Of a stretch of DNA of 64,000 nt, positions 28,746 to 57,556 are shown piece by piece (positions within the stretch are counted from its first letter, which is position 1; each line of letters opens with the position of its first letter). This DNA is from an uncultured Verrucomicrobia subdivision 3 bacterium (GTDB taxonomy: Bacteria > Verrucomicrobiota > Verrucomicrobiia > Limisphaerales > UBA11358). The translations under genes and the position numbers were made by a program. The stretch covers positions 947 through 64,946 of the forward strand of contig CAITTG010000079.1 of the NCBI GenBank assembly GCA_903895255.1. Direction: 5' to 3'. The notes under the pieces were generated by a model. The model made no database searches. It worked only from the letters and a program-made list of their open reading frames with translations, and was not told the DNA's origin.

Positions 28746-30863
28746 ATGCCCTTGCCCCCGTCAACCTCGTTTTTGCCCGCTGCCATCGTCTGGCGGGCTG
28801 GCCAGTGGGTGCCGTTGGTCATGGTCCTGGCCTTCAGCGCACACCCCGTCCGCGCGCAAACCACAAACACGGAACTACACACCGTGGCCGAGGTGCGGAG
28901 CCTGTCGGCGGCGGCGGCACAGCAGCATTTGAATGTCCGGTTGCGCGGGGTGGTCACCTTTTTCGATGAGGGCCTGTTCTCGCGTTTTATGCAAGACGAC
29001 ACCTCCGGGGTTTACTTGTATGACGCCGGATTGCCGGTGCATTTGATCCCGGGCCAGTTGGTGGAGGTGGCCGGCACCACCAGTTCGGGCGAATATGCCC
29101 CCATCGTGGTGCCCAAGGAAATTCACGTCGTGGGCCAGGGGCCGCTGCCGTCGCCCCGGCGGGTGGGTTACGACGAAATGGCCAGCGGCCAGGAGGACAG
29201 CCAGTTTGTGGAAATCAGCGGGGTGGTGCGGTCGGTGGAATTGCTGACCAACCAATATTATGAAATTGAAATTGCCACCGGTGGGGGCCGGCTCTCCGTT
29301 TATGCCCGCACCCTGCCAGTGGACCGGGTGGAAGCGCTGCCGGACAGCACCGTACGGGTGCGGGGTGTTTGCTCCACCCAGTTTAATCGTCGCCGGCAAT
29401 TATTTGCCATCCGCTTGATGGTGCCGCGGCCGGAAGATTTGGTGACGGAATCACCGGCTCCCAGTGATCCTTTTGCCATCGCCGCCCGGCCGATCGGCAG
29501 CCTCCTGCAATTCACCCCGCAGGAATCGTTTGGCCGCCGCGTGAAGGTGGCGGGGCAGGTGATCTATTACGAGCCGGGCAAGGAGGTTTTTTTGCAGGAG
29601 GGTGATCAGGGCGTCGAAGTGCAAACCCGCGGGCAGGAACCGCTGGCGCTGGGCGATCAAGTGGAGGCGCTGGGATTTGTCAGCCAGGGGGATTACACCC
29701 CGCTGCTGCAGGATGGCATCTACCGCAAGCTGACGGCGGGACCGCCCCTGGCACCCGCGCGGGTGACGCCGGATGAGGCGCTCAATGGCAAATATGACTG
29801 CCAGCTCATTCAGGTCACCGCCAGGGTCCTGGACCGGGCATTACTGGGGACGGAACGTTATCTGGTGTTGCAGGAGGGTGACATTATCTTTCAAGCCTTC
29901 TTGGGCGAACTGGATGGTGACGATCCCCTGGCGCAATTGGAAAACGGGAGTCGTGTGGCCGTTACCGGCGTTTGCCGGATTGAGCCGGGCGTGTGGCTGG
30001 CGGGGGACACCTGGCGCGCCAAGGCTTTTCGGTTGCAAATGCGTTCCATCGCAGACGTTACGCTGGTCGAGGCCCCCTCATGGTGGACCCTCCGCCGGGT
30101 GCTGGGGGCGGCCATCGCGGTGAGTGTGGCGGCGCTGGCAGCGTTTGCGTGGGTTGTGGTCTTGCGGCGGCAGGTGGCGGAGCGGGGGCGTGAGTTGGAA
30201 ATCCAAATCCAGGAACGGCAACTGGCCGAGCGCCGGCGTGAGATTGAGCAGGAGCGCACCCGCGTGGCGCAGGATTTGCACGATGAGTTGGGGTCCACCC
30301 TGACGGAGGTCAGCATGCTCGGCTCCTTGCTCCAAACCCCGTCCATCCCGCTGGAGACCCGGGCGACTCACTTGGAGAAGCTGGTGCAGGTGTCGCGCGC
30401 GGTGGTGGCCACGCTGGATGAAATCGTCTGGGCCGTTAATCCCACTTATGACTCGGTCGCCTCGCTGGCCAGTTATTATTCGCTGTTCGCGCAGCGGTTT
30501 TTAAACCTCGCGGGCATGGCGTGCCGCCTCACGGTCGCGGAAACCTTCCCGGCGGCCCCGCTGGACTCCCGGTTGCGGCACGGAGTTTTTCTTGCATTCA
30601 AAGAAGCGCTCAACAATGCTGTCCGCCATTCCGGCGCCTCCCAAGTGCACATTGAAATGAGTGTCGCCGCGCACGTTTTGCGCATTGTCATTGCCGACAA
30701 TGGCTGCGGCTTTGATGCCCGCCGGCGCCAGCCGGGCTGTGACGGCCTCGCTGGCATGCAGGAGCGCATGACCCGGCTGGGCGGCCATTGTGAAATCACC
30801 AGCCAGCCTCATCAGGGAACAACCGTAATCTTTACTTTGCCGCTGGGAACCCCTGTGTCATGA
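28746..30863 (+). CDS. Sensor histidine kinase (HisKA_3/NarX type) with a large periplasmic region
   Basis: ERTRVAQDLHDELG, KEALNNAVRHS, DNGCG and GLAGMQER. Repeated VRxRGV-like modules precede the TM. Start uncertain. Confidence 0.9.
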   Translation: MPLPPSTSFLPAAIVWRAGQWVPLVMVLAFSAHPVRAQTTNTELHTVAEVRSLSAAAAQQHLNVRLRGVVTFFDEGLFSRFMQDDTSGVYLYDAGLPVHLIPGQLVEVAGTTSSGEYAPIVVPKEIHVVGQGPLPSPRRVGYDEMASGQEDSQFVEISGVVRSVELLTNQYYEIEIATGGGRLSVYARTLPVDRVEALPDSTVRVRGVCSTQFNRRRQLFAIRLMVPRPEDLVTESPAPSDPFAIAARPIGSLLQFTPQESFGRRVKVAGQVIYYEPGKEVFLQEGDQGVEVQTRGQEPLALGDQVEALGFVSQGDYTPLLQDGIYRKLTAGPPLAPARVTPDEALNGKYDCQLIQVTARVLDRALLGTERYLVLQEGDIIFQAFLGELDGDDPLAQLENGSRVAVTGVCRIEPGVWLAGDTWRAKAFRLQMRSIADVTLVEAPSWWTLRRVLGAAIAVSVAALAAFAWVVVLRRQVAERGRELEIQIQERQLAERRREIEQERTRVAQDLHDELGSTLTEVSMLGSLLQTPSIPLETRATHLEKLVQVSRAVVATLDEIVWAVNPTYDSVASLASYYSLFAQRFLNLAGMACRLTVAETFPAAPLDSRLRHGVFLAFKEALNNAVRHSGASQVHIEMSVAAHVLRIVIADNGCGFDARRRQPGCDGLAGMQERMTRLGGHCEITSQPHQGTTVIFTLPLGTPVS

Positions 30864-31486
30864 CCAAAGTTGCCATTGTTGAAGATAATAAAACCACCCG
30901 CGAGGGCCTGGAGACCATCGTCAATTTATCCGCCGACTTCCGTTGCGTGGGCACCTGCGCCACGGCGGAGGAGGCGCTCAAGGTGCTGCCCAAGCTGGAA
31001 CCCGAATTGGTGTTGATGGACATCCAGTTGCCGAACATGTCCGGCGTGGACTGTGTGGCGCGGCTGAAGGAGCTGCTGCCGGGCGTCAAAGCCATCATGG
31101 TGACGGTGTACGAGGATCCGGACCGGATTTTTCGCGCCTTGCGGGCGGGGGCCTCGGGCTATCTATTAAAACGATCCACACCCGAGGAGGTGCTGCACGC
31201 CATGAGCGAGGTGCAACTGGGGGGCGGGGCCATGAGCGGGGAGATTGCCCGGAAGGTGATTGGCTATTTTCGCGAACAGACCACTGCCTCTACAGAAGTA
31301 GACGAGCTGACGCCGCGCGAGCGCGAGGTGCTGGAACTGGTGGTGCATGGCCTTTCCAACAAGGAAATCTGCGAGCGCCTCTCGGTCACCGTGGCGGCCG
31401 TGCGGTTTCACCTCAAACACATCTACCAAAAGCTCCACGTCCATTCCCGGACCGAGGCCGCTCTTAAATTCCGCCCCGCCAAATAA
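30860..31486 (+). CDS. NarL/LuxR-family response regulator
   Basis: REC domain (VEDN, LMDI, GYLLK) and LTPREREVL HTH; overlaps the kinase stop. Confidence 0.93.
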   Translation: MTKVAIVEDNKTTREGLETIVNLSADFRCVGTCATAEEALKVLPKLEPELVLMDIQLPNMSGVDCVARLKELLPGVKAIMVTVYEDPDRIFRALRAGASGYLLKRSTPEEVLHAMSEVQLGGGAMSGEIARKVIGYFREQTTASTEVDELTPREREVLELVVHGLSNKEICERLSVTVAAVRFHLKHIYQKLHVHSRTEAALKFRPAK

Positions 31487-31525
31487 AGAGGGAAGGCTAA
31501 ACTCCATGGGTGGGGCCGCGCAAAA

Positions 31526-31572
31526 AACTATCTACTTGGGGAGCTATCCCTTTCCCAGCCCTTCGCTATAGT
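31526..31572 (+). promoter_or_regulatory. Candidate activator site and -10 box
   Basis: CTATC-N11-CTATC direct repeat upstream of TATAGT, with no good -35. Confidence 0.3.
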
Positions 31573-31673
31573 AGCTATGAATTCACCAACTGCCGCCAAT
31601 TCCAATTGTGGAACTGTCGGCGGCGGTGCCGATAAAAAACAACGCAAACGACAACGCAACCCGACGTCAGCCA

Positions 31674-34600
31674 ATGAATAAAAACCTGTCAAACAATCAA
31701 AGTCGCCCCCGGCTGGCCCGCTGGGCGTCAGCCGCCCTCCTGCCAGCAGCCTTGGGCACGCTCCTGCTGGTCACCGCCCCGGCCCAGGCCCAACCCACCA
31801 CCGCCGCCCCCACCCCCCCGGCACACGCGAATGTGGTTTCCATGTACAACAGCAGCGGCACCTACTCGGACCAGTCCGGGATTGGCTGGTACGCTGGTTG
31901 GGGCAGTGTCGCCAGCCAGGGCGATTATGTCATTGGCGGCAGCTCCACGGTCAAAAGCTATCTCGGCCTCAATTATGCCGGCGTGGAATTTTACAGTCCC
32001 GCGATCAATGTCTCGTCGGATAACATGATGCATGTGGATGTCTGGACGACCGCCAACCAACTGGCCATCAAACTGGTCAGCACTGGCAACGGCGCGGCTG
32101 CCGAGTTGATCTATCCCGCCAGCAGCGGAGTCATTACCAGCAACCATTGGGTGGGCCTGGACATTCCGCTCACCGCCTTCACTGCCCTCGCCCCGTCATT
32201 GGATCTCGCCAACCTTACCCAGTTGCTCTGGGTGGATAACGGCGACATTCCCGGCTCCGGGGTCAAACTGGGAAATTTCTATTTTGATAATATTTACTTT
32301 TACACCGCCACCGTCCCGCTGAACGTGGCCATCACCAGCCCTTCGGCCGGCGCCTCCGTCCTCACCAATTTTACCATCACCGCCTCCTCATCCGTGAGCC
32401 CGGGCACCGTTACCAGTGTGAGTTTTTATGACAATGGCAGCTTGCTCGGCAATGCGACCACGGCGCCCTACACGTACGATGTAACCGGCGCGGCTGTGGG
32501 GGCGCACGCCCTCACCGCCGTGACCCATGCCAGCACCGGGGCCAGTGTAACCTCCTCCGTGGTCAACGTTACCGTGAGCGTGCCCACGCTGGTGTTGTTT
32601 CCCGATGGCAATTTTGAAAATCCGGCGGGTGACCAGGCCAGCAATTACTGGGTGCCCTCCTTCTCCGCGCCCGTAACCTTTGATTATCCCACCACTGGCG
32701 GGAATCCCAACGGTTATGCGGTCATTGATGACACCGGAGGCGGTTCCTTCGGCGTGATCGTAAGTGGCAACACCACCCCGCTGCCGCTTTCGACCCTGGC
32801 TTTGCTTGCCGGTAATACTTACACCTTCGTACAGGACATGATTATCCTGGATGGTTCCAGCATCGGTGGCTTGAAGGTGGAATCTTGGGGGCCCAACGGT
32901 TATATCAGTGACAGCGGTAACATGTATCCCGCCTCCGGTTCTTCCTCATGGGCGACTTATTCCTTCTCTTACACCATCAATCCAGCCGCCACCGGCATCA
33001 AAGTGGTGCCTTTGTGGGGACCCAATTCCTCGGTCGGTTACGACAACATCGGCGTGATCGTGCCCGCCACGCCGCTCTCCGTCGCCATTACCAGTCCTTC
33101 GGCTGGCGCCACCGTGAATACCAATTTCACCATCACCGCGACCACGCTCGTCAACCCGGGGGCGGTGACCAACACATATTTTTATGTGGATAACGCGCTC
33201 GTCGGCACCAGCTCCGCCTATCCTTACACCTATACCAGCGGTAACCCTGCGTTGAGCGGATCGCATGCGTTGCGAGTGGTCGCGAAGGATAACACCGGAC
33301 ATACGGCCACCTCCTCGGTGGTGAACGTGACCATCGTGGCCGCCGCCCAGCCCGTGCCGAATTATCCCATCACCGATGCCCCCACGCCCACCCGGGCGGC
33401 TTCCAGTGTCATGGCCTTGTATAACAGCAGCGGCGTTTATGCCGACCAGCCTGTCACCACCTGGGCGACATCCTGGAGCAGCCCGGGCAGCGGTATCGGG
33501 GTTAATTACACCAACACGGTCACCCGCAAGGTGGTCAAGTATTACCCGGCCCTGCAGTATGCCGGCGTGGATTTTCCCGCGCTCAACCTGTCCGGAAACA
33601 TGATGATGCATGTGGACGTGTGGTCCCCGAATGCCGCGCAGTTTGCCATTAAGTACGCCAACACCGTCGTGCCTTTCACTGCCGTTTCCAGCGCCACTCA
33701 GTTGACCAACAAAACATGGGTCAGCCTTGATTTCCCGATCAATGACTTCCCGACCATCGCTGATCCAACCAGCGTGGGCGAGTTCCTCTTTGTGGACAAC
33801 ACGCCGATCGCTGAAAACGCCACATTCTATGTGGACAACATTTATTTCTGGACCACCAACCAGGTGAATTCCTCCATCGCCCTCGGCAACCAGGTTTCCT
33901 GGACGAGTGTCGTGGGGAACAGTTATCAACCCCAGAAATCCGCCAACAACACCACTTGGGTGAATCTCGGTGGCCTGGTCACCGACGCCGCCGTGACCAA
34001 TGTGTTCGATGCCGCGCCCGCCCCTTATTACCAGGTGCTGCAATACAATCCCGGCGCGGTGGACGCGCTCTTGAACAGTGGATTTGAAACGGATAATGGC
34101 TCCGGCGCCCCGGCCAGCTGGAACTCCGTTGGCACACAAACCCCGGGCTGGATTACCACCAATGCCCACACTGGCACCTACTCCATGGACTTCAATGTTC
34201 AGGGGGATGGCATTGGCTCGCCCAATTCCGTCATCCTTCAGCAAGGCTTTGTGCCCGTTACCAGCGGGGCGACCTACACCTTTAGCGCCTGGTCGCAACT
34301 CGTTAAAACCGCCGGCATCAGCTTCGGTGACTTTTGCCTCGTGCAATGGTTCGATGCCAGCTCGGGCTTTGTCAGTCAGTCCCAAATCACGCTGACCAAT
34401 TCCATGGGGGTTTGGCAGCAAAGCGCCGCGCGGCTGACGGTTCCGGCCAATGCCACCCAGGCGCAGGTGCAGATCGTGGCCAACATTGGCGCGGTGGCCA
34501 ATGACTACGGCGAGGTGCTGGTGGATGACGTTTCCCTCGCCACCGGTGGCTCACCCTCCACCAATGCCATCCCGGCGCAGGTGCAGCCCGCGGTCGGCAT

Positions 34601-34772
34601 CTCCTGGCAATCCGGTGCGGGCCGCACCTATCAGGTCCAGTCCACGCCGGCGCTCACCCCCTCCGTCTGGTCACCGTTGGGAGCCAACGTGACTGGTAAC
34701 GGCGGCATTCCCACGGTGACGGACCAGCCCGCCGCAGCCCAGATGTTCTATCGCGTGCTGGAACTCTATTGA
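31674..34772 (+). CDS. Large secreted multi-domain glycan-binding protein (CBM-like and Ig-like repeats, FYRV C-terminus)
   Basis: Signal peptide; duplicated AP(T)P...YNSSG.Y.DQ...YAGV...MHVDVW...FY.DNIYF module; two [10 protein letters not shown] Ig-like domains; two (D/N)x(N/G)FE CBM4-like domains; ends [11 protein letters not shown]. No catalytic motif recognised. Confidence 0.8.
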
Positions 34773-34783
34773 TGGATGTTCAC

Positions 34784-34820
34784 GCGGGCCGGCCGGTTGG
34801 CGGCTGGCCCGCTTTTTATT
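34784..34820 (+). terminator. Intra-cluster hairpin with U-tract
   Basis: GCGGGCCGGCCG...CGGCTGGCCCGC-TTTTT between the large gene and the prepilin gene. Confidence 0.65.
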
Positions 34821-34828
34821 ACTTGTTT

Positions 34829-35590
34829 ATGAAAACCATCAATCGGCCGACTCCGGCGGCGTTTACCCTTATCGAGCTGCTCGTGGTCATCGCCATCATC
34901 GCCATCCTGGCGGCCATGCTCCTGCCCGCGCTGGCCAAGGCCAAGGACAAGGCCAAGGCGATCGCCTGTAGCAGCAACAACAAACAAATCGGCCTGGCCA
35001 TGATCATGTATGTGGGCGATAACGGTGACTTTTTGACGCCCCTGAACGATCGTAACTTTGCCTCCCACACCACCAACTGGTGGTTCCGCTACCTGGGCAA
35101 TGGCAATTACATTACCAGCAGCTCCACTTCCAACAACGTCTGGCGTTGCACCGCGGTGCAGGACCAGGACATTCAGCCCGGCACGGTGACCTTCTACGAT
35201 TCTCCATGCGAGGGCTATGGTCCGATGGAGGATACCACCAACTCGGCCTTTGGCATCATTCGTTATGCCCTGGACCTGGGGAACAATTATCAGGGAGCCC
35301 GCAAAATGACTTCCCTGAAGCGCACGAGTCAGCTCTGGCTGGCCGGGGATGTGGGCACGCCCAAAACGGGTGGCAGCGCCAACCAACAGCCCGCCAGCTA
35401 TTACACGGACATCACCGTCATCAAACCCATGTATGGCTCGGGTTGGACGGCCGTGCCCTCTTACAAACAAGCCGCTTGCCGCCACAATGGCCGCGCCGTT
35501 TTTTCCGCTTGTGACGGTCACGTGGAGAGCTGGAATTGGAAGGATTTGAGCACGGACGTTAACGACGTTTTTGCCGTCTACTCATTCTAG
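34829..35590 (+). CDS. Prepilin-type N-terminal cleavage/methylation protein with H-X9-DG motif
   Basis: [26 protein letters not shown] and C-terminal [15 protein letters not shown]. Confidence 0.9.
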
Positions 35591-35648: not shown

Positions 35649-36263
35649 ATGATCAAAATCTCTTGCCGGTTTCGTCAATTTTTGGCCGCGGGACTGCTGG
35701 GCGGACTGCTGGCCGCCACGCCTGCTCTCCGGGCCGATGACACCTCCCCGGCCAACGGGGTCAAATTCCCCTTTGTCATTTACGAGGATCAAGGCAGTAC
35801 GAACAATCATTTTGCCCCGTCCGGCTGGATGGGTAATACCGGGGGCATTCAGGCGGATGACGGCTGCACCAATAATCCCCATGGGGGCACCACCTGCCTG
35901 CGGTTTGCCTACACCGCCCCCGCGCAGTGGGGCGGCGTGGTCTGGCAGGACCCCGTCAATGACTGGGGCGATGTTCCCGGTGGCTGGAACCTGACCGGGG
36001 CAGCCAGATTATCCTTCTGGGCCCGGGGGGAGAAGGGCGGGGAAATCGTCAGTTTCAAATTTGGGATTCTGGGCGCCGATAAAAAATATTCGGACAGCGC
36101 CACTGGCGAATCCACCGACTTGAAACTGTCGCCCGAATGGAAGCGTTATACGATAGATCTTGCCGGCAAGGATCTGACCCGCGTCAAAACCGGTTTTGTC
36201 TGGACGCTCAGCGGCCAGGGGCATCCGGTGGTCTTTTTTCTGGATGATATCCGTTTTGAATGA
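35649..36263 (+). CDS. Secreted stand-alone CBM-like (galactose-binding fold) protein
   Basis: Signal peptide; FAPSGWMG, WGGVVWQ, LSFWARGEKGGE, EWKRYTIDL and FFLDDIRFE. Confidence 0.65.
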   Translation: MIKISCRFRQFLAAGLLGGLLAATPALRADDTSPANGVKFPFVIYEDQGSTNNHFAPSGWMGNTGGIQADDGCTNNPHGGTTCLRFAYTAPAQWGGVVWQDPVNDWGDVPGGWNLTGAARLSFWARGEKGGEIVSFKFGILGADKKYSDSATGESTDLKLSPEWKRYTIDLAGKDLTRVKTGFVWTLSGQGHPVVFFLDDIRFE

Positions 36264-36312
36264 AATGCGGCGGGGCAGCGGGAGCTCCCCGTCCCTGAAT
36301 TTTTAATGACGA

Positions 36313-37167
36313 ATGAAAAAGCAATTTTTGAAAATGACAGTGTTGGTGGCCTGGCTCGCGGCCGTAGCACCGCCCGTGCACGCGGACAATGGTGCGAACG
36401 GCGACTGGAAACTGGTGTGGAGCGACGAGTTCAACCAGCCGGATGGCAGCCTGCCCGACCCTGCCAAGTGGAGTTTTGAAACCGGTGGCAACGGCTGGGG
36501 CAATAACGAAATGGAATACTACACCGCGCGTACCAACAATGCCCGGATTGAAGACGGCAAACTGGTGATTGAAGCCAAAAAAGAAAGCTACGGCGGCAAG
36601 ACCATCACCTCCGCCCGCCTGTTGACCAAAGGCAAATATTCCTGCACCTATGGCCGGATCGAGGCCCGTATCCAGATTCCCCGCGGCCAGGGGATCTGGC
36701 CGGCGTTTTGGATGATGGGTACGAATATCGATAGTGTCGCCTGGCCGGCCTGCGGGGAGATTGACATCATGGAAAACATCGGCAAGGAACCGGGCACGGT
36801 GCATGGGACGGTGCACGGTCCCGGCTACAGTGGTGCGCATGGCATTGGCGGCCCTTTCACCCTGCCGGGGGGCGCGGCGCTGGCCAGTGATTTTCATGTG
36901 TACGGCATTGAATGGAGCACCAACCGCATCGACTGGTACCTTGACGGGCAAACCTACTTCTCCATCACCCCCGCCCGGCTCCCGCAGGGGGCTGCCTGGG
37001 CCTTCGACCAGTCCAAATTCGTCCTTTTTAATTTGGCGGTGGGCGGTGGCTGGCCCGGTTATCCCGATGCCACCACCACCTTTCCGCAGCGGATGGTGGT
37101 GGACTATGTGCGGGTCTATCAAAAAGTGCCCGCCGGCGCAACGGCGCAAGCGCGCCTGGGCAATTAG
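36313..37167 (+). CDS. GH16 endo-beta-1,3-glucanase (laminarinase-type)
   Basis: LVWSDEF, GWGNNE, WPAFW, catalytic EIDIME and VDYVRVYQ. Confidence 0.93.
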   Translation: MKKQFLKMTVLVAWLAAVAPPVHADNGANGDWKLVWSDEFNQPDGSLPDPAKWSFETGGNGWGNNEMEYYTARTNNARIEDGKLVIEAKKESYGGKTITSARLLTKGKYSCTYGRIEARIQIPRGQGIWPAFWMMGTNIDSVAWPACGEIDIMENIGKEPGTVHGTVHGPGYSGAHGIGGPFTLPGGAALASDFHVYGIEWSTNRIDWYLDGQTYFSITPARLPQGAAWAFDQSKFVLFNLAVGGGWPGYPDATTTFPQRMVVDYVRVYQKVPAGATAQARLGN

Positions 37168-37544
37168 TGAGCAGGCAGAAAAGAGTTGGCCTTGCGTGGG
37201 CATTAATCCCCCAAGTGTGGCCGAGAATCCAAAATTCCGGCTCCTTCCCCTTTTGGCGGCCCGCACTATCCGATGCTGGAGCGCCGTGCCGCACGGTGTG
37301 GATCGCCGCAAGCCTCGACTAGCGCCAGCGCTGGCACCTGACTCGCTTTTGGCAAGCCAGACTCTACTGCTGGCACCCCGTATTACGAGCCTCAATCAAC
37401 CTCCTTCAACCGCACGTTTTTCGGGGAGAAGCCGGCCGGGCGGCGTTACTCCTTGCTGGAAGACCGTAACGGGTAGTTTCGCTCTTTCCGCGCCTTGCCA
37501 TGCCGGCTTCTTCCCGAAAATTCATTGGGTTATGCCCGGTTTGA

Positions 37545-41159: not shown

Positions 41160-41587
41160 AAATATTACATGGGCGCGGCCGGCCGCGGTGTTTTCTGAAC
41201 TGGCACCGGTGGAATCACCGGGCGGGCTTTCCCCTCCGGCTTTCCCATCTGCTAAGACCCTGCGCCAATTACCTGCGGAGGGTCAAACCCAAATCTCTCA
41301 TTGCCCTAAAATGACCGTCTTTAGGCAGTGTATATTTGGCTGGTGGGCAGGTTTTTACCCTATGCTGGGCAAGGTGCGCCTGGGGTGCGGGCGGCACCTC
41401 CAATCGGTTGCGGCTGGCGGTCGGGTTGAGGGTGGGTTGTGCTTAACCTGCCAGTGGAGAACTGGTGGCTGATTTTTTACAGAAATTACTGAGGTTTGCC
41501 AGGCGGCGGGGCCTGCCGCTTGCTCCGGCAATTTTGGATTGCGGAATTATTCGGCCAGCCAATCAATCCTCGCCGCTGGCTCGGCAG

Positions 41588-48090: not shown

Positions 48091-48708
48091 ATGAATAAAG
48101 TGCTTAATCAACACGTTCTGGTCCTGAATCGGTTGTGGCAGGCAGTCAATGTTTGCACCGCCCGGCGCGCCCTCACCCTCTTGTTTCAAGGCCAGGCGCA
48201 AGTCGTGCTGAATGACACGGACGGCTCGTTCCGGACCTTCAGCTTTGTCCAATGGCGCGACCTCTCGGAAACCGCCCCCCAAGAGGAGTCGGTCCACGCC
48301 ATTTCCTTCCGCATCCGCGTGCCGCGCATCATCCTGCTGCTGGCCTACGACCGTCTGCCCAAGAAAGAGGTGAAATTCACCCGGCATAATATTTTCGAGC
48401 GCGACAAGAACAAGTGCCAGTACTGCGGCGAAGTGTTCGAGCGCAAGGATTTAAACCTCGACCACGTCATCCCGCGCGACCGCGGCGGCCCGACCACCTG
48501 GGAAAACATCGTGTGCTCGTGCATCGAATGCAACACCCACAAGGCCAACCGCACGCCCTCCGAGGCAGGCATGAATTTGATTCGCAAGCCCAAGCGGCCG
48601 AAATGGCGGCCGTTCGTGCAAATCAGCTTCAGCCTCAACCAGCACGATAGCTGGCGGCACTTCATCGACCTGGCCTACTGGAACGTGGAATTGGGCGAGG
48701 AGTTGTAA
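48091..48708 (+). CDS. HNH endonuclease (McrA-like, stand-alone)
   Basis: VLVLN, IFERDKNKCQYCG, LDHVIPRDRGG and CSCIECNTHK. Confidence 0.9.
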   Translation: MNKVLNQHVLVLNRLWQAVNVCTARRALTLLFQGQAQVVLNDTDGSFRTFSFVQWRDLSETAPQEESVHAISFRIRVPRIILLLAYDRLPKKEVKFTRHNIFERDKNKCQYCGEVFERKDLNLDHVIPRDRGGPTTWENIVCSCIECNTHKANRTPSEAGMNLIRKPKRPKWRPFVQISFSLNQHDSWRHFIDLAYWNVELGEEL

Positions 48709-48906: not shown

Positions 48907-50073
48907 ATGGCGCGAACGCCCAAAGTTGTGTTGCTGATTGAATCCTCGCGCGGCGCGGGGCGGGCGCTCCTCTGCGGCATCGCCCAATACGCGCATGACC
49001 ACGGGCCTTGGTCCTTTTACTGGGAGCCGCGCGGGCTGGACACCGCCTGGCCGGTTGTGGAATCGCTCGAGGCGGATGGCATCATCCTGCGCGGCGTGGC
49101 CAACCTCGAAAAGTTACTGGCCCTGGGGGTGCCCACCGTGGTGGCGGGGCACCGCAGCGATGTGGCGAGCGGCTTTGTCAACCTTGTCACGGATTCCGCC
49201 ACTATCGCCCGGCTGGCGGCCGAACACCTCCTGGAATGCGGCTTCAAGCACTTTGCCTATTGCGGTTTTCAGGACACCCGCTTGGAGCATACCAACTGGT
49301 CACGGCAACGGCAGGCGTCCTTTGCGGAGCGCATCCTGGCCGCCGGCCTGGACTCCCCCCCCAGTTACACGCTGGCCCCGCTGAATCAAAACTGGAGCCG
49401 GGAGCGCTCCGAGCTCGCCCGCTGGCTGTCCCGGCTCCCCAAACCCGTTGGTATTATGGCCTGCAACGACGACTGCGGCGTGCAGGTGATGGAAGCCTGC
49501 AAACTGGCCGGTTTGAAAGTGCCGGAGGTCGTGGGCGTGGTGGGGGTGGACAATGACGAGGTTGTCTGCGGGCTGGCCGATCCCCCCATGTCCAGCGTGG
49601 TGGTGCAGTTTGAAAACGCCGGCTACCTGGCTGCCCAGGCACTGGACCGTTTGATGAAACGGCGTAAAGCCATCCCCGGCCAGATTTTGGTGTCCGCCTC
49701 CCATGTGTGCACGCGCCGGTCCACGGACACCCTGGCCATCGAGGATCCGCATCTCGCCCGGGCCTTGCGCCACATTCGCAGCCAGGTGGCCACCAATCTG
49801 GGCGTGGACGACGTCGCGCAGGTCACCGGCATTTCCCGGCGGGGGTTGGAGCGGCTGTTCCGTCGGCACACGGGCGGCTCCATCCTGGACGCCATTCGGC
49901 GGGAGCGCACCGGTCAGATCGCCCGGATGCTGGTGGAGACGGAATTATCCATCCGCCAGATTGCCGATGCCATGGGCTTTCCGGACACCCAGCATTTTGC
50001 GCGCTATTTTCGGACCGTCAAAAAAATCAGTCCGCTGCTCTGGCGCCGCAAGTTTGCCCGGCCACAGTCGTAA
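48907..50073 (+). CDS. XylR-family regulator (periplasmic-binding-like sensor plus AraC HTH)
   Basis: LLIESSR, HFAYCG, LPKPVGIMACND, GVDND and a C-terminal AraC domain. Confidence 0.9.
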   Translation: MARTPKVVLLIESSRGAGRALLCGIAQYAHDHGPWSFYWEPRGLDTAWPVVESLEADGIILRGVANLEKLLALGVPTVVAGHRSDVASGFVNLVTDSATIARLAAEHLLECGFKHFAYCGFQDTRLEHTNWSRQRQASFAERILAAGLDSPPSYTLAPLNQNWSRERSELARWLSRLPKPVGIMACNDDCGVQVMEACKLAGLKVPEVVGVVGVDNDEVVCGLADPPMSSVVVQFENAGYLAAQALDRLMKRRKAIPGQILVSASHVCTRRSTDTLAIEDPHLARALRHIRSQVATNLGVDDVAQVTGISRRGLERLFRRHTGGSILDAIRRERTGQIARMLVETELSIRQIADAMGFPDTQHFARYFRTVKKISPLLWRRKFARPQS

Positions 50074-50265: not shown

Positions 50266-53200
50266 ATGAACACCCTTATGACACCCAAATCATCCTTCTT
50301 AACCGCCCCGCCCTGGCGGACTTTGGCGGCTTTGCTCGCCGCGCTGGCCCTGGCCGACACCACCCAGGCTTCCCAGAAATCCTGGCTCGGTGGCGCCACC
50401 GACAACAATTGGGCCTCCGGTGGCAACTGGGTCGGTGCCGTGGCCCCGGTGAACAATGACAGCGTTTTGTTCAGTGGCACCCAGCGCACCCTCAATACCA
50501 ACAACATTACCGGGCTGACCCTGGGGGGCTTTGCGTTCAACAATTCGCTCTTTACCATTGCGGGCAATCTGGTCACCAACACCGGGGGGATTTACGACAA
50601 TGCCGGCAATAACACGAACAACCTGCCGATTTACTGGCAAGGCAGTCAGGGCATCACCAATGCCGTGTCTGGCACCGTCCTGCAACTGGGCGGCACCCAG
50701 GTAAGCCTGGGCACCGCGAATGTGCTCACCTTTGGCGGTCCGGGTAACATTTATATGACGGGCCTCCTGAGCAGCAATGCCGCCGTGAATATTAATGGCG
50801 ACGGCGCGGGCAACGGGTTCGTCCGCTGGTCGGCGGCCAACACCTTTGTGGGGTCCCTGACCATCAATTCCGGCACCCTGCAACTGGCCAATGCGGCGGC
50901 CATTCCCAGCGGCAACGGTTTTGGTGACGTGACCAACAACGCCATCCTGGATTTGAACGGCAACAGTGAGACTATCAATGGTTTGTTCGGCAGCGGTACG
51001 GTGGACAACGTCACCAGCGCCGCCTCCATCATCCTTACCGTGGGCAACAATCCCACCAACACCGGCGGCAATTTCTTCTTTAACGGGAACCTGCAAAATA
51101 CCAGCGGCAAAATTGGTCTCACCAAGGTGAACACCAACATCTTTTTCCTGGGCGGCTCGCCGACTTACGCCGGCGTGACCACGGTCAGCGCGGGGACGCT
51201 GGCGCTGACCAATGGAGCGGGACTCCCCAACTCCTCCGCCATCACGGTGGCACCCGGGGCTGTGCTGGACCTGACGGCCGGTGGCTTCTCCCTGGCCTCG
51301 GGCCAGACGCTGACGGCGGGGCGCGCCACCAATAATGGTCCGGTGGACATTTTTGGCGATCCGCAAAGCAGCGGGGCCATCAACATTTACAAGGCGGGGG
51401 CGGCGGGCACCCTTACCTTGAGCAGTGGCCTGACCCTCAACGGTGGCATCATTAATTATGATCTGGCGAACAGCACGGCCATCGGCGGCGGCACCAACGA
51501 CTTGATCATGCTCAACGGCTCCTTGAATTTGAATAGTGCGACCACCATCCGCCTCAACCCGGTTTCCGGGTCGTTCGCCGTGGGCAGCTATACCTTGATC
51601 TCCAACCGCACGGCCACGGTTTCCGGTTCGGTGGCCAACTTGACCGTGGAGACCCCCCGGGGTATTACCGCCACCTTGGACGGCACAACGCATCCAGGCA
51701 GCCTGCTGGTGGGCATCACCGGTTCCTCCAGCCCGGTGGCCCTCCTGTGGTCCGGCTCCATCAGTGGTGACTGGGATGTCAATCTGACGAAAAACTGGAC
51801 CAGTAACAACGTGCCCGATTATTTCTACAACCTCGACAACGTGGTGTTCGACGATTCCTCGAGCAACGCCACCATCAACCTGCCTTCCGGCGTTTCCCCC
51901 TTCAACACGCTGATCAGCAATTCCTCGAGCAACTATATCTTTGCCGGGGTGGGCTCCATCACCGGTTCGGGCGGTTTGACCAAGACTGGCACCGCGCAAG
52001 CGACCTTCCGCAATGCCAACAGCTACCTGGGCAACACCACCGTGAATGGCGGCTTGCTCTTCCTGGATATCCTCAACTCCGGCAGCGTGGTTAATCAGAT
52101 CCTTTACAGCGGGGTCACGCCCGGCACGCTCGTGATGGGCGGCGGCACTTTCCAAACCGGTAACCGGGGTAACACTACCTCCTATCAGCAGTTTGGGTCG
52201 ACCACGTTGAATCCGGGGGCTTCCATCATTAACCAGAACACCCGTATTTCGGGCGGTGCCCCAGCCATCTATCTGGGGGCCATCACCCGTAATCCCGGGG
52301 CCACGACCGACTTTGGTCCCAACGTGGGCAGCGGCGGCTCGCAGACCGTCAATACCGTCGGTATCTTTACCACGACGGCTAATAATAACACCACCGCCTC
52401 TGGTATTCTGGGCGGCTATGCCACCTACAACGCCGGTGAGTTTGCCCGCGTGAATACCTCCGCCGGCGCGCAGGGCGGCTTCCACATTTATGGGGGTGCA
52501 ACGTATGTAAATCTGTTTGGGGCCAATACCAACACCGATATGACGGCCGATCTCACGGCCGCCATCAACACCAACACGATGTCGGTGCGTTTCGCCGCGG
52601 CTTCCGCCCGCACGCTGACCCTGGCCGGTACCAACACCATCACTTCCGGTGCCGTGCTGGTGACCAGCGCGGTGGGGGCGAACCAGTCCACCATCACCGG
52701 GGGCGTGGCGTTGACCTCCGGGAATGGCCAGGATTTGATCGTGCATCAGTACGACGTGACCGGCAACCTGCTGATTAATTCCACCATCACCGACAACGGC
52801 AGCACCAGCCTGGGCTTCACCAAAGCCGGCAACGGCACGGCCATTCTGGCGGGCAACAACACCTACTCCGGCGTGACTTACATCAACGCCGGCACGCTGC
52901 AGGTGGGCAACGGGGGCACGGTCGGCAGCATTTCCACCTCCACCGGCGTGACCAATCGCGGCACCCTGGTGTTCAAGCACTCGGACAACATCAGCTTCGG
53001 CCTTCCCATCGCCGGTTCCGGCGGCTTGAGCCAGCTGGGCACGGGCAGCCTCACCCTCACAGCGAACAATGGTTTCTCCGGTGCCACCTACATCAATGCC
53101 GGCAGCACCCTGCAACTGGGCACGGGCGGCACGGCCGGCACCCTGGGCACCACCGCGAGCATCGCGGACAATGGCAGCCTGATTTATAATCACTCGGACA

Positions 53201-56200
53201 ACCTCAGCTATCCGGGCGCGATCAGCGGGGCGGGTTCGCTCACCTTGCAGGGCACCGGCAAAGTCACCCTGGGTGGCACAAATCTATACTCCGGTGGCAC
53301 CTTTATTAACTCCGGCACCCTGGCCTTGGGGGCTAATGCCTCCATCTCCAACACCATCGCCATTGTGGTGGCGGGCGGCAGTTCGTTGGATGTCTCCGCT
53401 CCGGGCTCCCTGACCCTCTCCGGCGGCACGGTCAACCAGGTGCTGGCGGGCTCGGGCACCGTCATTGGCAGTCTCGTCACCTCCGCCGGCACCGGCGCGG
53501 GCACCCGTATCACTCCCGGCACCAATGGGGTTTACGGCACCCTGACCATCAACAACGCCCTGACCTTGAACGGCGGCACTCTCAACTTGGACGTCTCCAC
53601 CGGTTCCAAGGACTTGATAGTGGTGGGCGGCAACCTGGCCATTAACGCGGGCACCGTCGCTTTAAACGTCAGCGGCACGCTCCCCGTCGGCAGCTACAAG
53701 CTCATTCAATATGCCGGTGCCCTGAGCGGTTCCGCGGGCAACCTGGTGGTGAGTGGCTTTGCGCAGAGTGGTTCCGTGGCCTCCCTGAGCAGCGCGACTC
53801 CGGGTGAAATTGACCTCGTCATCAGCAGCTATGTCCCGGTGAATCTCACCTGGCAGGGCGATGGCGGCAACAATTACTGGGATGTGCTGACCAGTGCGGA
53901 CTGGCTGAGCGGCAGCACCCCCGCCACGTACCATCAGTATGACAACACCACCTTTAACGATTCCTCGGCGAATACGACCGTGAACCTGCAGACGGTCGTG
54001 ACGCCGAGCCAGATCACGATCAATGGCACGGCCAACAGCTACACTTTTCAGGGCTCCGGCTCGATTGGCGCGGGCAACCTCACGGTGAACAATCCCAATA
54101 CCACGACCATCCTCACGGCGAACAGTTCCAGCGGCCTGACCACGATCAACGCCGGCACGTTGCAACTTGGCAACGGCACCACTGCGGGTTTGCTGGGCGC
54201 CGGGGTGGTGAGCAACAATGCTGCGCTGGTCTTCAATGAACCGGCCAACGAAGTGGTGGGCAATGTGCTCAGCGGCGCTGGCTCGGTGACCCACTCGGAT
54301 GCCAACACCTTGAGCCTCGTCGGTAACAATCCCATGACGGGACCGGTCACCATCAGCGCCGGCATTCTGCAGGTGGGGGTGGGTGGCGGCTCGGGCACCC
54401 TGGGCAGCGGGCCGGTCAGCGACAACAGCACCCTGGAAATTTCCCGCGCCGGCACGGTGACGGTGGCCAATGCCATCAGCGGCTCGGGCGATGTTATTGT
54501 GGATGGTCCCGGCACCGTCACGCTCAGTGGCGCCAACTCCTACGTTAACAATACCTACATCAGCAACGGCGTGGTAAAACTCGGCAGCTCCTCGGCCATT
54601 CCCTTCGGCGGGGCGACCACCGGCTGGCTGGTTCTGGATGGCGGGGCCACCGCGGCGGGCACCCTGGACTTGAATGGCTTTAACGCCGAAGTCAACGCTC
54701 TCTCTGGTTTGACGGCCACGACGGTCGGGCAGATCCTCAACAATGGCGGCACCGGCACCAACACCCTGACGGTGGATGAAATCGCCGCGACCACCTTCGC
54801 CGGTGACATTCTGGACAATAACGGTTCCGGCGGCAAAGTGGCCTTGGTCATGAATGGCGCGAATGTCCTGACCCTCACTCCCGGCGGCAACGGCAGCAGC
54901 TACAGCGGCGGCACCTGGCTCAACAACGGCACCATCAGTGGTGGCTCGAGCACCACGGCCAACAATAACATGCTCGGCACCGGGCCGCTCACGTTCGGGA
55001 CCAACGGCACCCTGCAAATGGCGGGTTGGACCGGCAGCACCTCGCCGGACTATGGCACGCTGGCCAATCCCATCATCGTCCCAAGCAACGTGGTCGCCAC
55101 GGTTCTCGGTTCCTGCCGCGCCGGCGGCGGGTTAAGCCCGGCGTATGCGACGGGTGCCACCAACAGTGTTCTGGTTTACATCACCCGCTATGTGCGCGGG
55201 AATGTTGGCGGTAACTGGAACGGTTTCTTTGGCACGTTCATGGCCAGCAACAACGCGAGTTCCGCAGGCAATGACTTCCGGTTGAACACCGGCACGGGCT
55301 TCCCGAATGCCCGCCTCTTGCTCGCTCCGAACGCCTACATGTACAACATCTTTGGTGGCACGCCCAATATCCCCATCGGCGAGCTCGATGGCGACTCCAC
55401 GACGACCATCGCGCTGAATTCCGGCGGTGGCGGTTTGGTGGCCCGGTTTGTCGTGGGCGGCTTGAACACCAGTTCGGAGTTTGATGGCAATATCACGGAT
55501 ACCCACGGGATCATCAAGGTTGGCACCGGCACCCTGACCCTCGGCGGCGCCACCCTGAGTTACACCGGTCCCACCACCGTGAGCAATGGTGTGATCGCCC
55601 TCACGGCCTCGGCCACACTTTCCGCCAGCACGCCGATTACCGTGGCCGCTCCCGGCGTTCTGGATGTCTCCGCTGGCGGTACCCTGACATTGGGCGCGCA
55701 AACCTTCCAGGGCGACAGCATTCTCCGCGGCAGTCTCGCCACCGCAGCCGGCAGCACGGTCTCGCCGGGCGGGGCCAATGCCCTGGCCACCCTTACCGTC
55801 ACCAACGACCTGAACCTCGCGGGTACGGCAGTGATGGAACTCAACCGGACCAATACTCCGGGTAATTGCGACAAGCTGGTGGCCCACACGATTGAGGCGG
55901 GCGGCACCCTTCAGGTCAACAACCTGGGACCGGACCTGCACACCGGCGACCGTTTCCAATTGTTTAGTACCAACATCACCGGCGCCTTTGCGGTCACCAA
56001 CCTGCCCATCACCACCAGCAGCGGCAGCATCACTTATGTTTGGCAAAACCACCTCGCCGTGGACGGCTCCATCTCCGTCCTGGTCGGGGTGCCGAATGTG
56101 AACACCACGCCCACCAACATTACCTCCAGCGTCTCGGGCAACGTCCTGACCCTCTCCTGGCCCGCCGACCATACCGGATGGCGCTTGCAAGAGCAGACCA

Positions 56201-56334
56201 ACAGTCTGGCCGTCGGTTTGAGCACCAGCACCAATGCCTGGATCACGGTGCCTGACTCATCCTCGGTCAATACCATCAACCTGCCCATCGACCCGAACTT
56301 GCCGACCGTGTTTTATCGCTTGGTTTATCCGTAA
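50266..56334 (+). CDS. 2022-aa secreted beta-strand-repeat (autotransporter passenger-like) protein without a beta-barrel; FYRL C-terminus
   Basis: Many G.LTK.G.GT..L...N.YSG.T.(I/V)..GTL repeats, G/T/N/S-rich, signal peptide; ends LSWP...W...PTVFYRLVYP. Confidence 0.88.
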   Translation: MNTLMTPKSSFLTAPPWRTLAALLAALALADTTQASQKSWLGGATDNNWASGGNWVGAVAPVNNDSVLFSGTQRTLNTNNITGLTLGGFAFNNSLFTIAGNLVTNTGGIYDNAGNNTNNLPIYWQGSQGITNAVSGTVLQLGGTQVSLGTANVLTFGGPGNIYMTGLLSSNAAVNINGDGAGNGFVRWSAANTFVGSLTINSGTLQLANAAAIPSGNGFGDVTNNAILDLNGNSETINGLFGSGTVDNVTSAASIILTVGNNPTNTGGNFFFNGNLQNTSGKIGLTKVNTNIFFLGGSPTYAGVTTVSAGTLALTNGAGLPNSSAITVAPGAVLDLTAGGFSLASGQTLTAGRATNNGPVDIFGDPQSSGAINIYKAGAAGTLTLSSGLTLNGGIINYDLANSTAIGGGTNDLIMLNGSLNLNSATTIRLNPVSGSFAVGSYTLISNRTATVSGSVANLTVETPRGITATLDGTTHPGSLLVGITGSSSPVALLWSGSISGDWDVNLTKNWTSNNVPDYFYNLDNVVFDDSSSNATINLPSGVSPFNTLISNSSSNYIFAGVGSITGSGGLTKTGTAQATFRNANSYLGNTTVNGGLLFLDILNSGSVVNQILYSGVTPGTLVMGGGTFQTGNRGNTTSYQQFGSTTLNPGASIINQNTRISGGAPAIYLGAITRNPGATTDFGPNVGSGGSQTVNTVGIFTTTANNNTTASGILGGYATYNAGEFARVNTSAGAQGGFHIYGGATYVNLFGANTNTDMTADLTAAINTNTMSVRFAAASARTLTLAGTNTITSGAVLVTSAVGANQSTITGGVALTSGNGQDLIVHQYDVTGNLLINSTITDNGSTSLGFTKAGNGTAILAGNNTYSGVTYINAGTLQVGNGGTVGSISTSTGVTNRGTLVFKHSDNISFGLPIAGSGGLSQLGTGSLTLTANNGFSGATYINAGSTLQLGTGGTAGTLGTTASIADNGSLIYNHSDNLSYPGAISGAGSLTLQGTGKVTLGGTNLYSGGTFINSGTLALGANASISNTIAIVVAGGSSLDVSAPGSLTLSGGTVNQVLAGSGTVIGSLVTSAGTGAGTRITPGTNGVYGTLTINNALTLNGGTLNLDVSTGSKDLIVVGGNLAINAGTVALNVSGTLPVGSYKLIQYAGALSGSAGNLVVSGFAQSGSVASLSSATPGEIDLVISSYVPVNLTWQGDGGNNYWDVLTSADWLSGSTPATYHQYDNTTFNDSSANTTVNLQTVVTPSQITINGTANSYTFQGSGSIGAGNLTVNNPNTTTILTANSSSGLTTINAGTLQLGNGTTAGLLGAGVVSNNAALVFNEPANEVVGNVLSGAGSVTHSDANTLSLVGNNPMTGPVTISAGILQVGVGGGSGTLGSGPVSDNSTLEISRAGTVTVANAISGSGDVIVDGPGTVTLSGANSYVNNTYISNGVVKLGSSSAIPFGGATTGWLVLDGGATAAGTLDLNGFNAEVNALSGLTATTVGQILNNGGTGTNTLTVDEIAATTFAGDILDNNGSGGKVALVMNGANVLTLTPGGNGSSYSGGTWLNNGTISGGSSTTANNNMLGTGPLTFGTNGTLQMAGWTGSTSPDYGTLANPIIVPSNVVATVLGSCRAGGGLSPAYATGATNSVLVYITRYVRGNVGGNWNGFFGTFMASNNASSAGNDFRLNTGTGFPNARLLLAPNAYMYNIFGGTPNIPIGELDGDSTTTIALNSGGGGLVARFVVGGLNTSSEFDGNITDTHGIIKVGTGTLTLGGATLSYTGPTTVSNGVIALTASATLSASTPITVAAPGVLDVSAGGTLTLGAQTFQGDSILRGSLATAAGSTVSPGGANALATLTVTNDLNLAGTAVMELNRTNTPGNCDKLVAHTIEAGGTLQVNNLGPDLHTGDRFQLFSTNITGAFAVTNLPITTSSGSITYVWQNHLAVDGSISVLVGVPNVNTTPTNITSSVSGNVLTLSWPADHTGWRLQEQTNSLAVGLSTSTNAWITVPDSSSVNTINLPIDPNLPTVFYRLVYP

Positions 56335-56350
56335 ACCACGCTGTCTCCCA

Positions 56351-56383
56351 GGCCTGCCGGCGGCAACGCCGGCAGGCCTTTTT
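56351..56383 (+). terminator. Strong rho-independent terminator
   Basis: GGCCTGCCGGCG GCAA CGCCGGCAGGCC TTTTT. Confidence 0.85.
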
Positions 56384-56398
56384 CATTCCCCGGCCGCT

Positions 56399-56533
56399 CG
56401 TCGCGGTGCGACGTTCCGACCGTAGTCGTGTGGCTTCAGCCCACGGAAGGATTTCCCCGGTGGCGCACGTTTCTAAACCTGCCGTGGTCGCCGCACGCTG
56501 ATGGCCAGGGTGGGACAGGCTTCCAGCCTGTCC
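56399..56533. repeat. Cluster of different REP-like palindromes
   Basis: CGTCGCGGTGCGACG; GTAG-TCGTGTGGCTTCAGCCCACGG; GTGG-CGCACGTTTCTAAACCTGC; GTGG-GACAGGCTTCCAGCCTGTCC. Confidence 0.55.
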
Positions 56534-56710
56534 GGCGAGCTCCCCAGCCCGAGCCAAACACCCCTGTTATTCCGCACCGTCCAACTTTTCCCGTCATTGG
56601 TCGGGGGCAGTGCCCCAAGCTGCGCTCACCGGGCGGGTCGGATGAACATCCGATAGGAAATTCTTCCCCAGCGGTTTAAGGTATTTATTACACATCGCCC
56701 AAATTATTGT

Positions 56711-57556
56711 ATGTTGAACCCAAAGTTTAAGCCCGTTTCCCCGACCCGCCGCCAGGGTTTCACCCTGATCGAACTCTTGGTGGTGATCGCCATCATTGCC
56801 ATCCTGGCCGCCATGTTGCTTCCGGCTCTGGCCGCAGCCAAGGAGAAGGCCAAGCGCATCCAGTGTGTCAACGGTTTGAAGCAAATGTATTTGGGTTGCA
56901 CCATTTATGCCGGCGACAGCGATGACTGGTATCCCACTTGGGGCGGCGATGCCCTCAACACGCGCACCAAAAACGTCATCGATCTTTCGAATTATATCCG
57001 TTGGGTGGTCTTTGGTGGCCCTATTAATGGCGGTCATGTCGCCCAGTCAGAATCGGTCATTAACGCCCAAGGCGCCCAGTTTGAAAACTTGGGGTACCTT
57101 TACCCGGCCAAACTCGTTGGTGATGGTCGGCTGTTCTTTTGCCCTAGTTACCCGGTCGGTTCACCCCTGGCTGGTGACGATTATTCTTCCGCCGGTTATC
57201 TAAGCTATGGCAATGTCAATGGCTCCGGCGGCATCCGCTGCAGTTACACCTACAACCCGTTGGTGGTCACGGATGGCTCCGGCACCGCCACCACGGCCTT
57301 GCGGCAGTATCAAAAAGCCAACAGTGTCAAAGGTCGTCATACCTTTATGTTGGATTACATCGACACGCAAATGACCAATCCCAGCTATTTTGCCCATTAT
57401 AAGTCCCGGGGCTGGAATATGGCTTTCACCGATGGGTCCGTTGCCTTCAGCAAGCCCGATCCGATTACTTTTAGCAAGGTCTATGCCGGCAACCCCACCT
57501 CGATCGGGGCTTTGACCGATATTTACCTGCCCATTTTGGAACAGTCGGCCAATTAA
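56711..57556 (+). CDS. Prepilin-type N-terminal cleavage/methylation protein (H-Xn-DG variant)
   Basis: [31 protein letters not shown] and [16 protein letters not shown]. Confidence 0.9.

Follow-up and report, generated by a model that had tools for sequence, protein, structure and literature searches.

In Planctomycetes, Verrucomicrobia and Lentisphaerae, few paralogous families are as large as that of the DUF1559/H-X9-DG proteins, for which no function is known. Members from Planctomycetota, Verrucomicrobiota and Lentisphaerota carry an N_methyl leader, an N..Q.GLA..MY..D block and a C-terminal H-Xn-DG motif. Planctopirus limnophila is reported to have 68 DUF1559 paralogs, whose function is called unknown (PMC10632474). 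In Bacteroidota, polysaccharide utilisation loci (PULs) combine adjacent SusC (TonB-dependent) and SusD genes with genes for surface glycan-binding proteins, glycoside hydrolases (GHs) and transporters and with a sensor or regulator, and the arrangement is repeated with different cargo. Here we describe features that recall both in a 64,000-nt stretch (hereafter the window) of an uncultured Verrucomicrobia subdivision 3 bacterium (assembly GCA_903895255.1, contig CAITTG010000079.1, positions 947 to 64,946). Two loci in the window, A and B, share a gene order of regulator, large secreted non-catalytic protein ending in what we call the FYR tail, terminator-like hairpin, and prepilin of the DUF1559/H-Xn-DG type. 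This order had been proposed in an initial annotation of the window, and Pfam scans, translations and the positions of the hairpins bear it out.

We regard the gene order, the enrichment of tail-prepilin adjacency, the hairpins, the presence of secretion machine parts in the genome and the absence of SusC/D as established. Loci A and B may be instances of a recurrent envelope module in this Limisphaerales/Pedosphaera-like Verrucomicrobia genome. We suggest that such modules are regulated by substrate, and that their pilin-like proteins serve a shared type II secretion system/type IV pilus (T2SS/T4P)-type machine as low-copy, locus-specific subunits, acting in the same glycan-capture step as the proteins encoded next to them. 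Our confidence in this reading, of which the recurrence of the module is a part, is evenly divided.

Adjacency of FYR-tailed genes and prepilin genes

We searched all open reading frames (ORFs) of the genome with a hidden Markov model (HMM) built from the last 80 residues, and scored as a tail any domain ending no more than 12 residues from the C-terminus. This identified 122 ORFs with an FYR tail, about 3% of all ORFs. The prepilin set comprised 58 ORFs of at least 100 aa with a prepilin N-terminal motif, and a tail ORF was counted as paired if a prepilin motif lay no more than 600 nt downstream on the same strand. The initial annotation had proposed a count of this kind, and the outcome was strongly positive: 16 of the 122 tail ORFs were paired, against 0.44 expected (Poisson P ~6e-20), an enrichment of approximately 30-fold over chance. 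For non-tail genes, a downstream prepilin was found for 7/1837 of those of at least 300 aa (Fisher P 3e-15) and for 2/367 of those of at least 700 aa (Fisher P 1e-8). The reverse order, with the tail gene following the pilin gene, occurs in four cases in this genome. Shuffling of gene order, using crude gene calls, gave a mean of 0.58-0.70 adjacencies and a maximum of 5, compared with 10-11 observed; the crude calls lose some true pairs to spurious small antisense ORFs, and the distance-based count was used instead. At two loci of this genome (C46:260-15239 and C92:48612-59708), a tail protein and a pilin are followed by one or two more tail proteins, so that some pilin genes have a tail-protein gene on either side.

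The adjacency was also positive in two relatives, although relatives are kin rather than independent samples. In a genome of the same genus (G011, 9 contigs), 4/92 tail matches have a pilin match no more than 700 nt downstream, with 0.33 expected; in one of these four pairs the tail match is weak and partial. In a genome from another family of the order (G016), 8/131 tails are followed by a pilin, with 0.91 expected. The latter genome has approximately 125 pilin matches as well as its 131 tail matches, with several of the pilin genes arranged in tandem, e.g. at C8:22491-25690, C57:2315-5202 and C67:47347-53105. Of 28 tail loci listed from genomes other than this one, 24 have an HMM-called C-terminal tail, and two of these 24 are followed by a prepilin. 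In public contigs of the Planctomycetes-Verrucomicrobia-Chlamydiae (PVC) group, a tail ORF ends no more than 600 nt upstream of 4/88 evaluable prepilins.

A strong hairpin commonly separates the two genes of a pair. We scored the strongest 44-nt hairpin no more than 100 nt after each stop codon; the fraction of genes with a hairpin of -25 kcal/mol or stronger was 0.75 for the 16 paired tail genes, 0.25 for 105 other tail genes and 0.03 for 150 random genes of at least 300 aa. The hairpin sequences differ between pairs, indicating that they are not copies of one repeat element. At locus A, the hairpin (34784-34812, + strand; a 12-bp stem, 11 GC, followed by a T-tract: TTTTTATTAC) lies 17 nt from the pilin ATG, measured from the stem, leaving no room for a separate promoter. 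The pilin start directly follows the hairpin in several further pairs, and this arrangement implies read-through transcription at a reduced level. At locus B, the hairpin after the large-protein gene (56350-56379, + strand; 13 bp, 11 GC, with a T-tract: TTTTCATT) is followed by a spacer of approximately 330 nt before the pilin ATG, with room for a separate promoter.

It could be argued that these counts reflect no functional link, and that two abundant paralogous envelope families simply pile up in the same variable genomic islands. Both families are indeed large, with up to 144 tail and 125 pilin matches in relatives in addition to the 122 and 58 ORFs found here, and paired status is scattered on the trees of both. 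We nevertheless consider this explanation very improbable, because the roughly 30-fold enrichment holds over size-matched non-tail genes as well as over chance, the pairs have short gaps and a common strand (none was on opposite strands in the gene-order count), the adjacency is replicated in two further genomes, and the hairpin is specifically enriched in the pairs.

The surroundings of the 16 pairs look like those of substrate-regulated, glycan-related loci, as the initial annotation had supposed for the two in the window. There are 65 neighbour ORFs within 4 kb of the pairs. Ten lie in the window, where an ORF at 58302-58964 has no family match and the GH16 gene was scanned in place of an antisense ORF at 36208-37395; of the 55 outside it, 45 were put to Pfam and ten short ORFs (110-167 aa) were left out. 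A sensor or regulator gene lies no more than 4 kb from nine of the 16 pairs: a NarL-type histidine kinase (HK) and/or response regulator (RR) in four cases, a XylR-like regulator in two, and in one case each a GntR regulator with a periplasmic-binding-protein domain, a Y_Y_Y kinase, and a Ser/Thr kinase with an ECF sigma factor. Six pairs have a glycoside hydrolase (GH16, GH95, GH43, GH29, GH78 or NamZ), and four have a major facilitator superfamily (MFS) or ATP-binding cassette (ABC) transporter. PATR repeats are present in seven of the 16 partner proteins; the others have LamG, carbohydrate-binding module (CBM), PA14 or immunoglobulin (Ig) domains, or nothing recognisable. Pfam assigned a catalytic domain to none of the 16.

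The tail domain and the prepilins

In a full-length HMM search of this genome, 119 copies of the FYR domain were C-terminal and only seven internal. For 19 tails, Pfam and NCBIfam, with their models for tails of the type IX secretion system (T9SS), gave no match (none of T9SS type at E 5 or better), apart from a weak match of one tail to Pfam fn3 (E 0.027). An AlphaFold2 model of the locus A tail, made from a 43-row alignment, is an all-beta sandwich with a mean pLDDT of 79.9, rising above 90 from residue ~31. Foldseek found no match to this model in the PDB at E 0.001 or better. The top rows of a VIA-align search are mostly Fn3 domains (Z 5.6-7.0, with rmsd 2.2-3.4 over 63-83 residues for most rows), although a Z below 8 may reflect merely a common arrangement, and families beyond the rows listed may be similar too. 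We take the predicted likeness to Fn3 to be one of fold level only. We rejected the idea of donor-strand exchange, in which the pilin would complete an incomplete Ig fold, since the model has a full set of strands, with the FYRV strand last.

The FYR domain is present in 20/21 genomes of the order, with 7-144 matches each, and in a representative library of 1.84 billion proteins it is matched by 56,175 cluster representatives at E 0.001 or better. The best 150 of these all hold two to 41 copies of the domain, and the best copy is C-terminal in 47 of the 150. In the tandem arrays displayed, every unit ends RFYR[VL]. Pfam found no family at all in three of eight top library matches, and in none of the eight a family covering the repeat units. 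We conclude that the FYR tail is a widespread and abundant, yet uncatalogued, module with a predicted Fn3-like fold. Proteins of this genome nearly always have a single copy, placed at the extreme C-terminus. The module may deserve a domain family entry of its own. A crude signal-peptide rule was positive for 109/122 tail proteins and 977/1837 controls; it failed to discriminate and was not used. A loose PEP-CTERM-like pattern picked out 40 ORFs, of which only some of the 15 inspected look genuine; these are small proteins that form a separate set, and the FYR tail is therefore no replacement of a PEP-CTERM system. Among the papers listed on C-terminal sorting signals in Verrucomicrobia, none concerned an FYR-type tail. 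Just upstream of locus A (26798-28484), two ORFs lie 8 nt apart. The first (418 aa) has a Peptidase_S74 'chaperone of endosialidase' domain at residues 300-350, and the second (140 aa; 28062-28484, + strand; ...RFYRLLEP, tail HMM E 4.6e-15, without a Pfam family) is hardly longer than the FYR tail domain with which it ends. The two may be parts of a split gene, or the second may encode a tail domain by itself.

Both pilins of the window have a class III leader region recognised by PF07963 (N_methyl; 27.0 bits for locus A and 39.5 bits for locus B, cut-off 21.2) and by TIGR02532 (27.1 and 34.3 bits, cut-off 16.3). A stretch of 24 residues is identical in the two, as had been noted in the initial annotation and as the translations confirm. 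In an alignment of the 16 paired pilins, the N-terminal 24 residues are nearly identical throughout, and F+1 and E+5 are invariant. At position -1 of the predicted cleavage site, Ala is found in ten of the 16 (locus A included) and Gly in six (locus B included). PF07596 (SBP_bac_10, DUF1559) is matched by the locus B pilin at 31.1 bits, whereas the locus A pilin, at 22.6 bits, falls just under the cut-off of 23.3. The latter aligns throughout with the other paired pilins, and its 30 Atlas feature matches all fall in one family set, three clusters of which, as shown, carry N_methyl and SBP_bac_10. Neither pilin matched the NCBIfam H-X9-DG model, which we take to be TIGR04294, at E 0.01 or better. 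By eye, the motif is present as such in locus A, whereas locus B has H-X11-DG, not H-X9-DG. Across the 16 paired pilins, the H and G of H-Xn-DG are invariant and the D is nearly so, and the N..Q.GLA..MY..D block is conserved.

The N-terminal 60 residues of the two pilins match models of GspG, PilA and ComGC, and profile matches to PilA and GspG in the PDB extend over the helix only. With the GspG model TIGR01710 the two pilins score 36.5 and 32.8 bits, far from the equivalog cut-off of 88.85, and only positions 1-60 of the model's 134 align. An AlphaFold2 model of the locus A pilin (16-row alignment) has a mean pLDDT of 50 and is poor outside the N-terminal helix. Residues invariant or nearly so in the 16 paired pilins are, in locus A numbering, Cys47, Cys107-Pro108, Tyr61, Asp64, His219 and Asp229-Gly230; they hint at a disulfide and possibly a metal or ligand site. 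A predicted complex of the locus A tail domain and pilin head (residues 30-253) scored 0.00 in a run made without controls, and speaks neither for nor against binding.

The initial annotation had proposed that pilin and cargo are cognate. In the strict form of this proposal, each pilin would be the adaptor of its neighbour, and the FYR tail would be the tag by which the pilin recognises a protein to be secreted or displayed; the whole would be a pilin-based counterpart of the T9SS C-terminal-domain system. Consistent with such a tag, the domain is nearly always at the extreme C-terminus here (119 copies against seven) and is present on ~3% of ORFs, the tail gene precedes the pilin gene in 16 cases and follows it in four, and T9SS C-terminal domains are likewise beta-sandwiches of ~80 aa. 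Against it, head identity shows no correlation with tail identity over the 16 pairs (Spearman -0.03, Mantel p 0.61). Where the heads are closest to each other (44% identity), the tails share 11%; where the tails are closest (60%), the heads do not rise above background (20%). Paired members are dispersed over the trees, with 14 changes for the pilins (14.9 +/- 1.6 in shuffles) and 19 for the tails (18.7 in shuffles), and paired tails form no subtype; both the Mantel and the clade-clustering tests rest on very diverged, short sequences. Moreover, 106/122 tail proteins have no downstream pilin, gene order is not fixed in G016, where roughly one pair in two has the pilin gene first, and the tandem internal arrays of other organisms, with up to 41 stretches per protein, would be odd for a secretion tag. 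The evidence says that the pairing is not cognate, or at least not through the tail, and we consider the strict form improbable.

The scatter of paired status on both trees, together with the lack of correlation between heads and tails, also indicates that the pairs did not arise by duplication of a single ancestral module. Either the adjacency has been assembled repeatedly, or it has been kept by selection while the partners diverge freely. In both cases, a general functional link between the two families fits better than a lock-and-key pair.

Loci A and B in the window

All genes of the two loci are on the + strand. Locus A begins with a sensor HK (28668-30863; HisKA_3 and HATPase_c in Pfam) and a NarL/LuxR-type RR (30860-31486; Response_reg 88 bits, GerE 67 bits). 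The large secreted non-catalytic protein that follows is encoded by a 1054-aa ORF (31608-34772) with two Big_7 domains and a CBM_4_9 domain (Pfam), and ends ...MFYRVLELY. Its probable start is the ATG at 31674, and the translation has a Sec-type leader (...APAQAQ). The C-terminal FYR tail domain, identified by the tail HMM and predicted by the AlphaFold2 model to be an Fn3-like beta-sandwich, spans 34512-34769. Beyond the hairpin is the DUF1559-like prepilin gene (34829-35590), whose product has the H-X9-DG motif near its C-terminus and the Ala -1, F+1 and E+5 already described. A 204-aa ORF (35649-36263) has no Pfam family; it had been thought CBM-like, and gave only a weak match to choice_anch_J (E 0.0045), below the cut-off. 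The last gene (36313-37167) encodes a GH16 glycoside hydrolase of beta-glucanase type (Glyco_hydro_16, 95 bits), which NCBIfam beta-glycanase models match under their equivalog cut-offs.

Locus B begins with a XylR-like regulator (48907-50073), consisting of a periplasmic-binding-protein-like sugar sensor (Peripla_BP_3, 123 bits) and an AraC-type helix-turn-helix (HTH_18, 69 bits). The direct-repeat operator formerly assigned to this locus did not hold up: there is only an 11-nt match in two copies 72 nt apart, along with short imperfect inverted repeats, and we rejected these as no more than short chance-level repeats. The giant secreted beta-strand-repeat protein (50266-56334; 2022 aa) has eight PATR matches in Pfam and ends ...VFYRLVYP. 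Its C-terminus is the FYR domain (56074-56331; tail HMM E 1.2e-15), and no C-terminal beta-barrel translocator family of the autotransporter kind was matched in Pfam or NCBIfam. The prepilin gene (56711-57556; N_methyl and SBP_bac_10 both over cut-off, Gly -1, E+5, H-X11-DG) is followed by a 14-bp terminator-like hairpin that closes the locus (57599-57633).

Between the two loci, on the - strand (37545-44002), are genes for a 1204-aa protein with GH9 and CelD_N domains and a 775-aa FG-GAP repeat protein, and their presence points to a beta-glucan or cellulose-related island in the wider region. A gene for an HNH endonuclease of 205 aa (48091-48708) lies directly upstream of the locus B regulator, and a 452-aa sulfotransferase-family gene (58908-60266) lies on the opposite strand just past locus B. 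The left side of the window contains genes for an OprB-family carbohydrate porin and a 900-aa sulfatase (3218-7562). At 13207-19757, a TetR regulator gene precedes an operon for RND efflux, with an AcrB-type pump, an HlyD-type adaptor and an outer-membrane factor.

A proposed role and known systems

The initial annotation had invoked a shared T2SS/T4P-like machine, and parts of one are present in the genome: three secretin matches, T2SSF genes, one prepilin-peptidase gene and seven T2SSE-family matches, four of them in frames of 571-655 aa and three in frames of 371-384 aa. Its remark that the loci lack SusC/SusD also stands, as no such match was found among the scanned ORFs of the window; genome-wide (94.9% complete), there were no matches to SusD PF07980 and one weak match, on another contig, to the TonB receptor PF00593. 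Unpaired pilins were surveyed in the first 19 of 33 regions, with 88/177 neighbour ORFs scanned. Two of these pilins lie in T2SS/T4P machine clusters, approximately six are beside glycoside hydrolases, sugar-type regulators or tail proteins, and the rest are next to unrelated genes.

In the scheme we propose, we infer induction, pilin processing, assembly and any contact between tail protein and pilin. The regulator would induce the locus on its glycan. A large Sec-exported non-catalytic protein of binding or adhesin type (lectin, CBM, Ig or PATR beta-helix) would reach the cell surface and bind polymer, and the strong hairpin would close or attenuate the transcript of its gene. The single prepilin peptidase would cut the pilin-like protein, whose invariant N-terminal helix with Glu5 would feed it into one of the shared T2SS/T4P-type machines as a low-copy, locus-specific minor (pseudo)pilin. 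There, it may fit a common fibre to the substrate: it could bind the glycan directly, or assist in exporting or holding the protein encoded next to it. The interpretation given in the initial annotation is supported in part; display, secretion or uptake, as imagined there, would proceed through such a fibre.

The main rival to this scheme is that the two genes are only co-regulated, as members of one glycan regulon. DUF1559 proteins would then be anchored in the inner membrane and face the periplasm, with variable heads that bind or act on oligosaccharides, and would never enter a fibre or touch the tail protein. The high variability of the heads, with which the tails do not co-vary, is consistent with this possibility, as is the Pfam family name SBP_bac_10. 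Tail-less pilins are found right after regulators (a Y_Y_Y HK and RR followed by a pilin; an AraC gene divergent from a pilin) and beside GH2/GH27, GH106 and GH141, while MFS or ABC transporters follow 4/16 pairs. The free gene order in G016 and the Ala at -1 in 10/16 pilins are consistent with it too. However, E+5 and the pilin-type N-terminal helix are invariant, and in type IV pilins these are needed for assembly, not mere anchoring. Furthermore, the enrichment is one of immediate same-strand adjacency to tail proteins, at 13% compared with 0.4-0.5% for other large genes, and the pilin model, with its pLDDT of 50, lends no support to an SBP-like head fold. We consider co-regulation alone to be somewhat unlikely.

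Several observations weigh against a role for the pilins as fibre subunits acting with their neighbours. Only 13% of tail proteins and, in either order, 18/58 prepilin ORFs are paired, and many of the unpaired pilins surveyed adjoin housekeeping genes. In G016, the pilin-then-tail order (about nine cases) is as common as its opposite. Heads and tails do not correlate, and paired members are scattered on the trees. Prepilin peptidases partly tolerate Ala at -1, and its presence in most of the paired pilins means that processing is not assured. The strong terminator between the genes, and the long spacer of locus B, could mark separate transcription units. Finally, we called the genes and defined both the prepilins and the tails by ORF, motif and HMM rules of our own.

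In a bolder form of the proposal, a T2SS/T4P-type fibre, shared between loci and possibly retractile, would have DUF1559 proteins as its locus-specific minor subunits, and the FYR domain would be a generic handle by which ~100 glycan-binding surface proteins are exported onto this fibre or docked to it. Pilin-based polysaccharide capture would then replace SusC/D and T9SS-type sorting in Verrucomicrobia and their PVC relatives. We think this form improbable; if true, it would assign a function to the superphylum's largest uncharacterised protein family.

How, then, do the modules compare with known systems? Relative to the DUF1559/H-X9-DG family as described, the copies here are divergent, that of locus A falling under the family cut-off and that of locus B having two additional residues within the motif. 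What our counts add is the preferential placement right after tail-domain surface proteins; full-text searches on DUF1559, H-X9-DG, and pilins and glycans in Verrucomicrobia and Planctomycetes found no paper that connects DUF1559 with partner proteins or with glycan loci. The pilins here have the class III leader, F+1, E+5 and the hydrophobic helix in common with T2SS pseudopilins (GspG-K) and type IV minor pilins. In contrast, the heads here are ~200 aa long and unrelated by sequence to solved pilin heads, and the genes, instead of standing in a machine operon, are spread over dozens of glycan loci. Type IV minor pilins work with a large non-pilin adhesin of the PilY1/PilC type, an arrangement resembled here by the small pilin gene beside the gene for a large surface protein, although Pfam found no PilY1-like domain in the partner proteins.

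Unlike Bacteroidota PULs, the modules belong to a genome without SusD and with a single weak TonB-receptor match; their surface proteins are not SusE/F-type lipoproteins, and the recurrent slot is filled by a pilin-like gene. The T9SS C-terminal sorting domains of Bacteroidota resemble the FYR tail in being ~80-aa beta-sandwiches that end ~100 large secreted proteins per genome, whereas the FYR tail has no match among sequence models, has Fn3 domains as its best fold matches, and in other organisms is also repeated in tandem within proteins. For glycan capture by fibres, the closest experimental precedent is that of the pili-like fibres at crateriform structures of Planctomycetes, to which dextran binds (PMC5394234). 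These belong to another phylum, and the sections of that article available to us do not name the fibre subunits or make a link to DUF1559 or a tail protein. The reproducible association described here, ~30-fold and inside regulated glycan loci, provides concrete genetic pairs with which a role for DUF1559 in sugar-polymer capture can be tested. It points to how glycan capture is organised in PVC bacteria that are free of SusC/D and have an important part in the breakdown of algal and plant polysaccharides.

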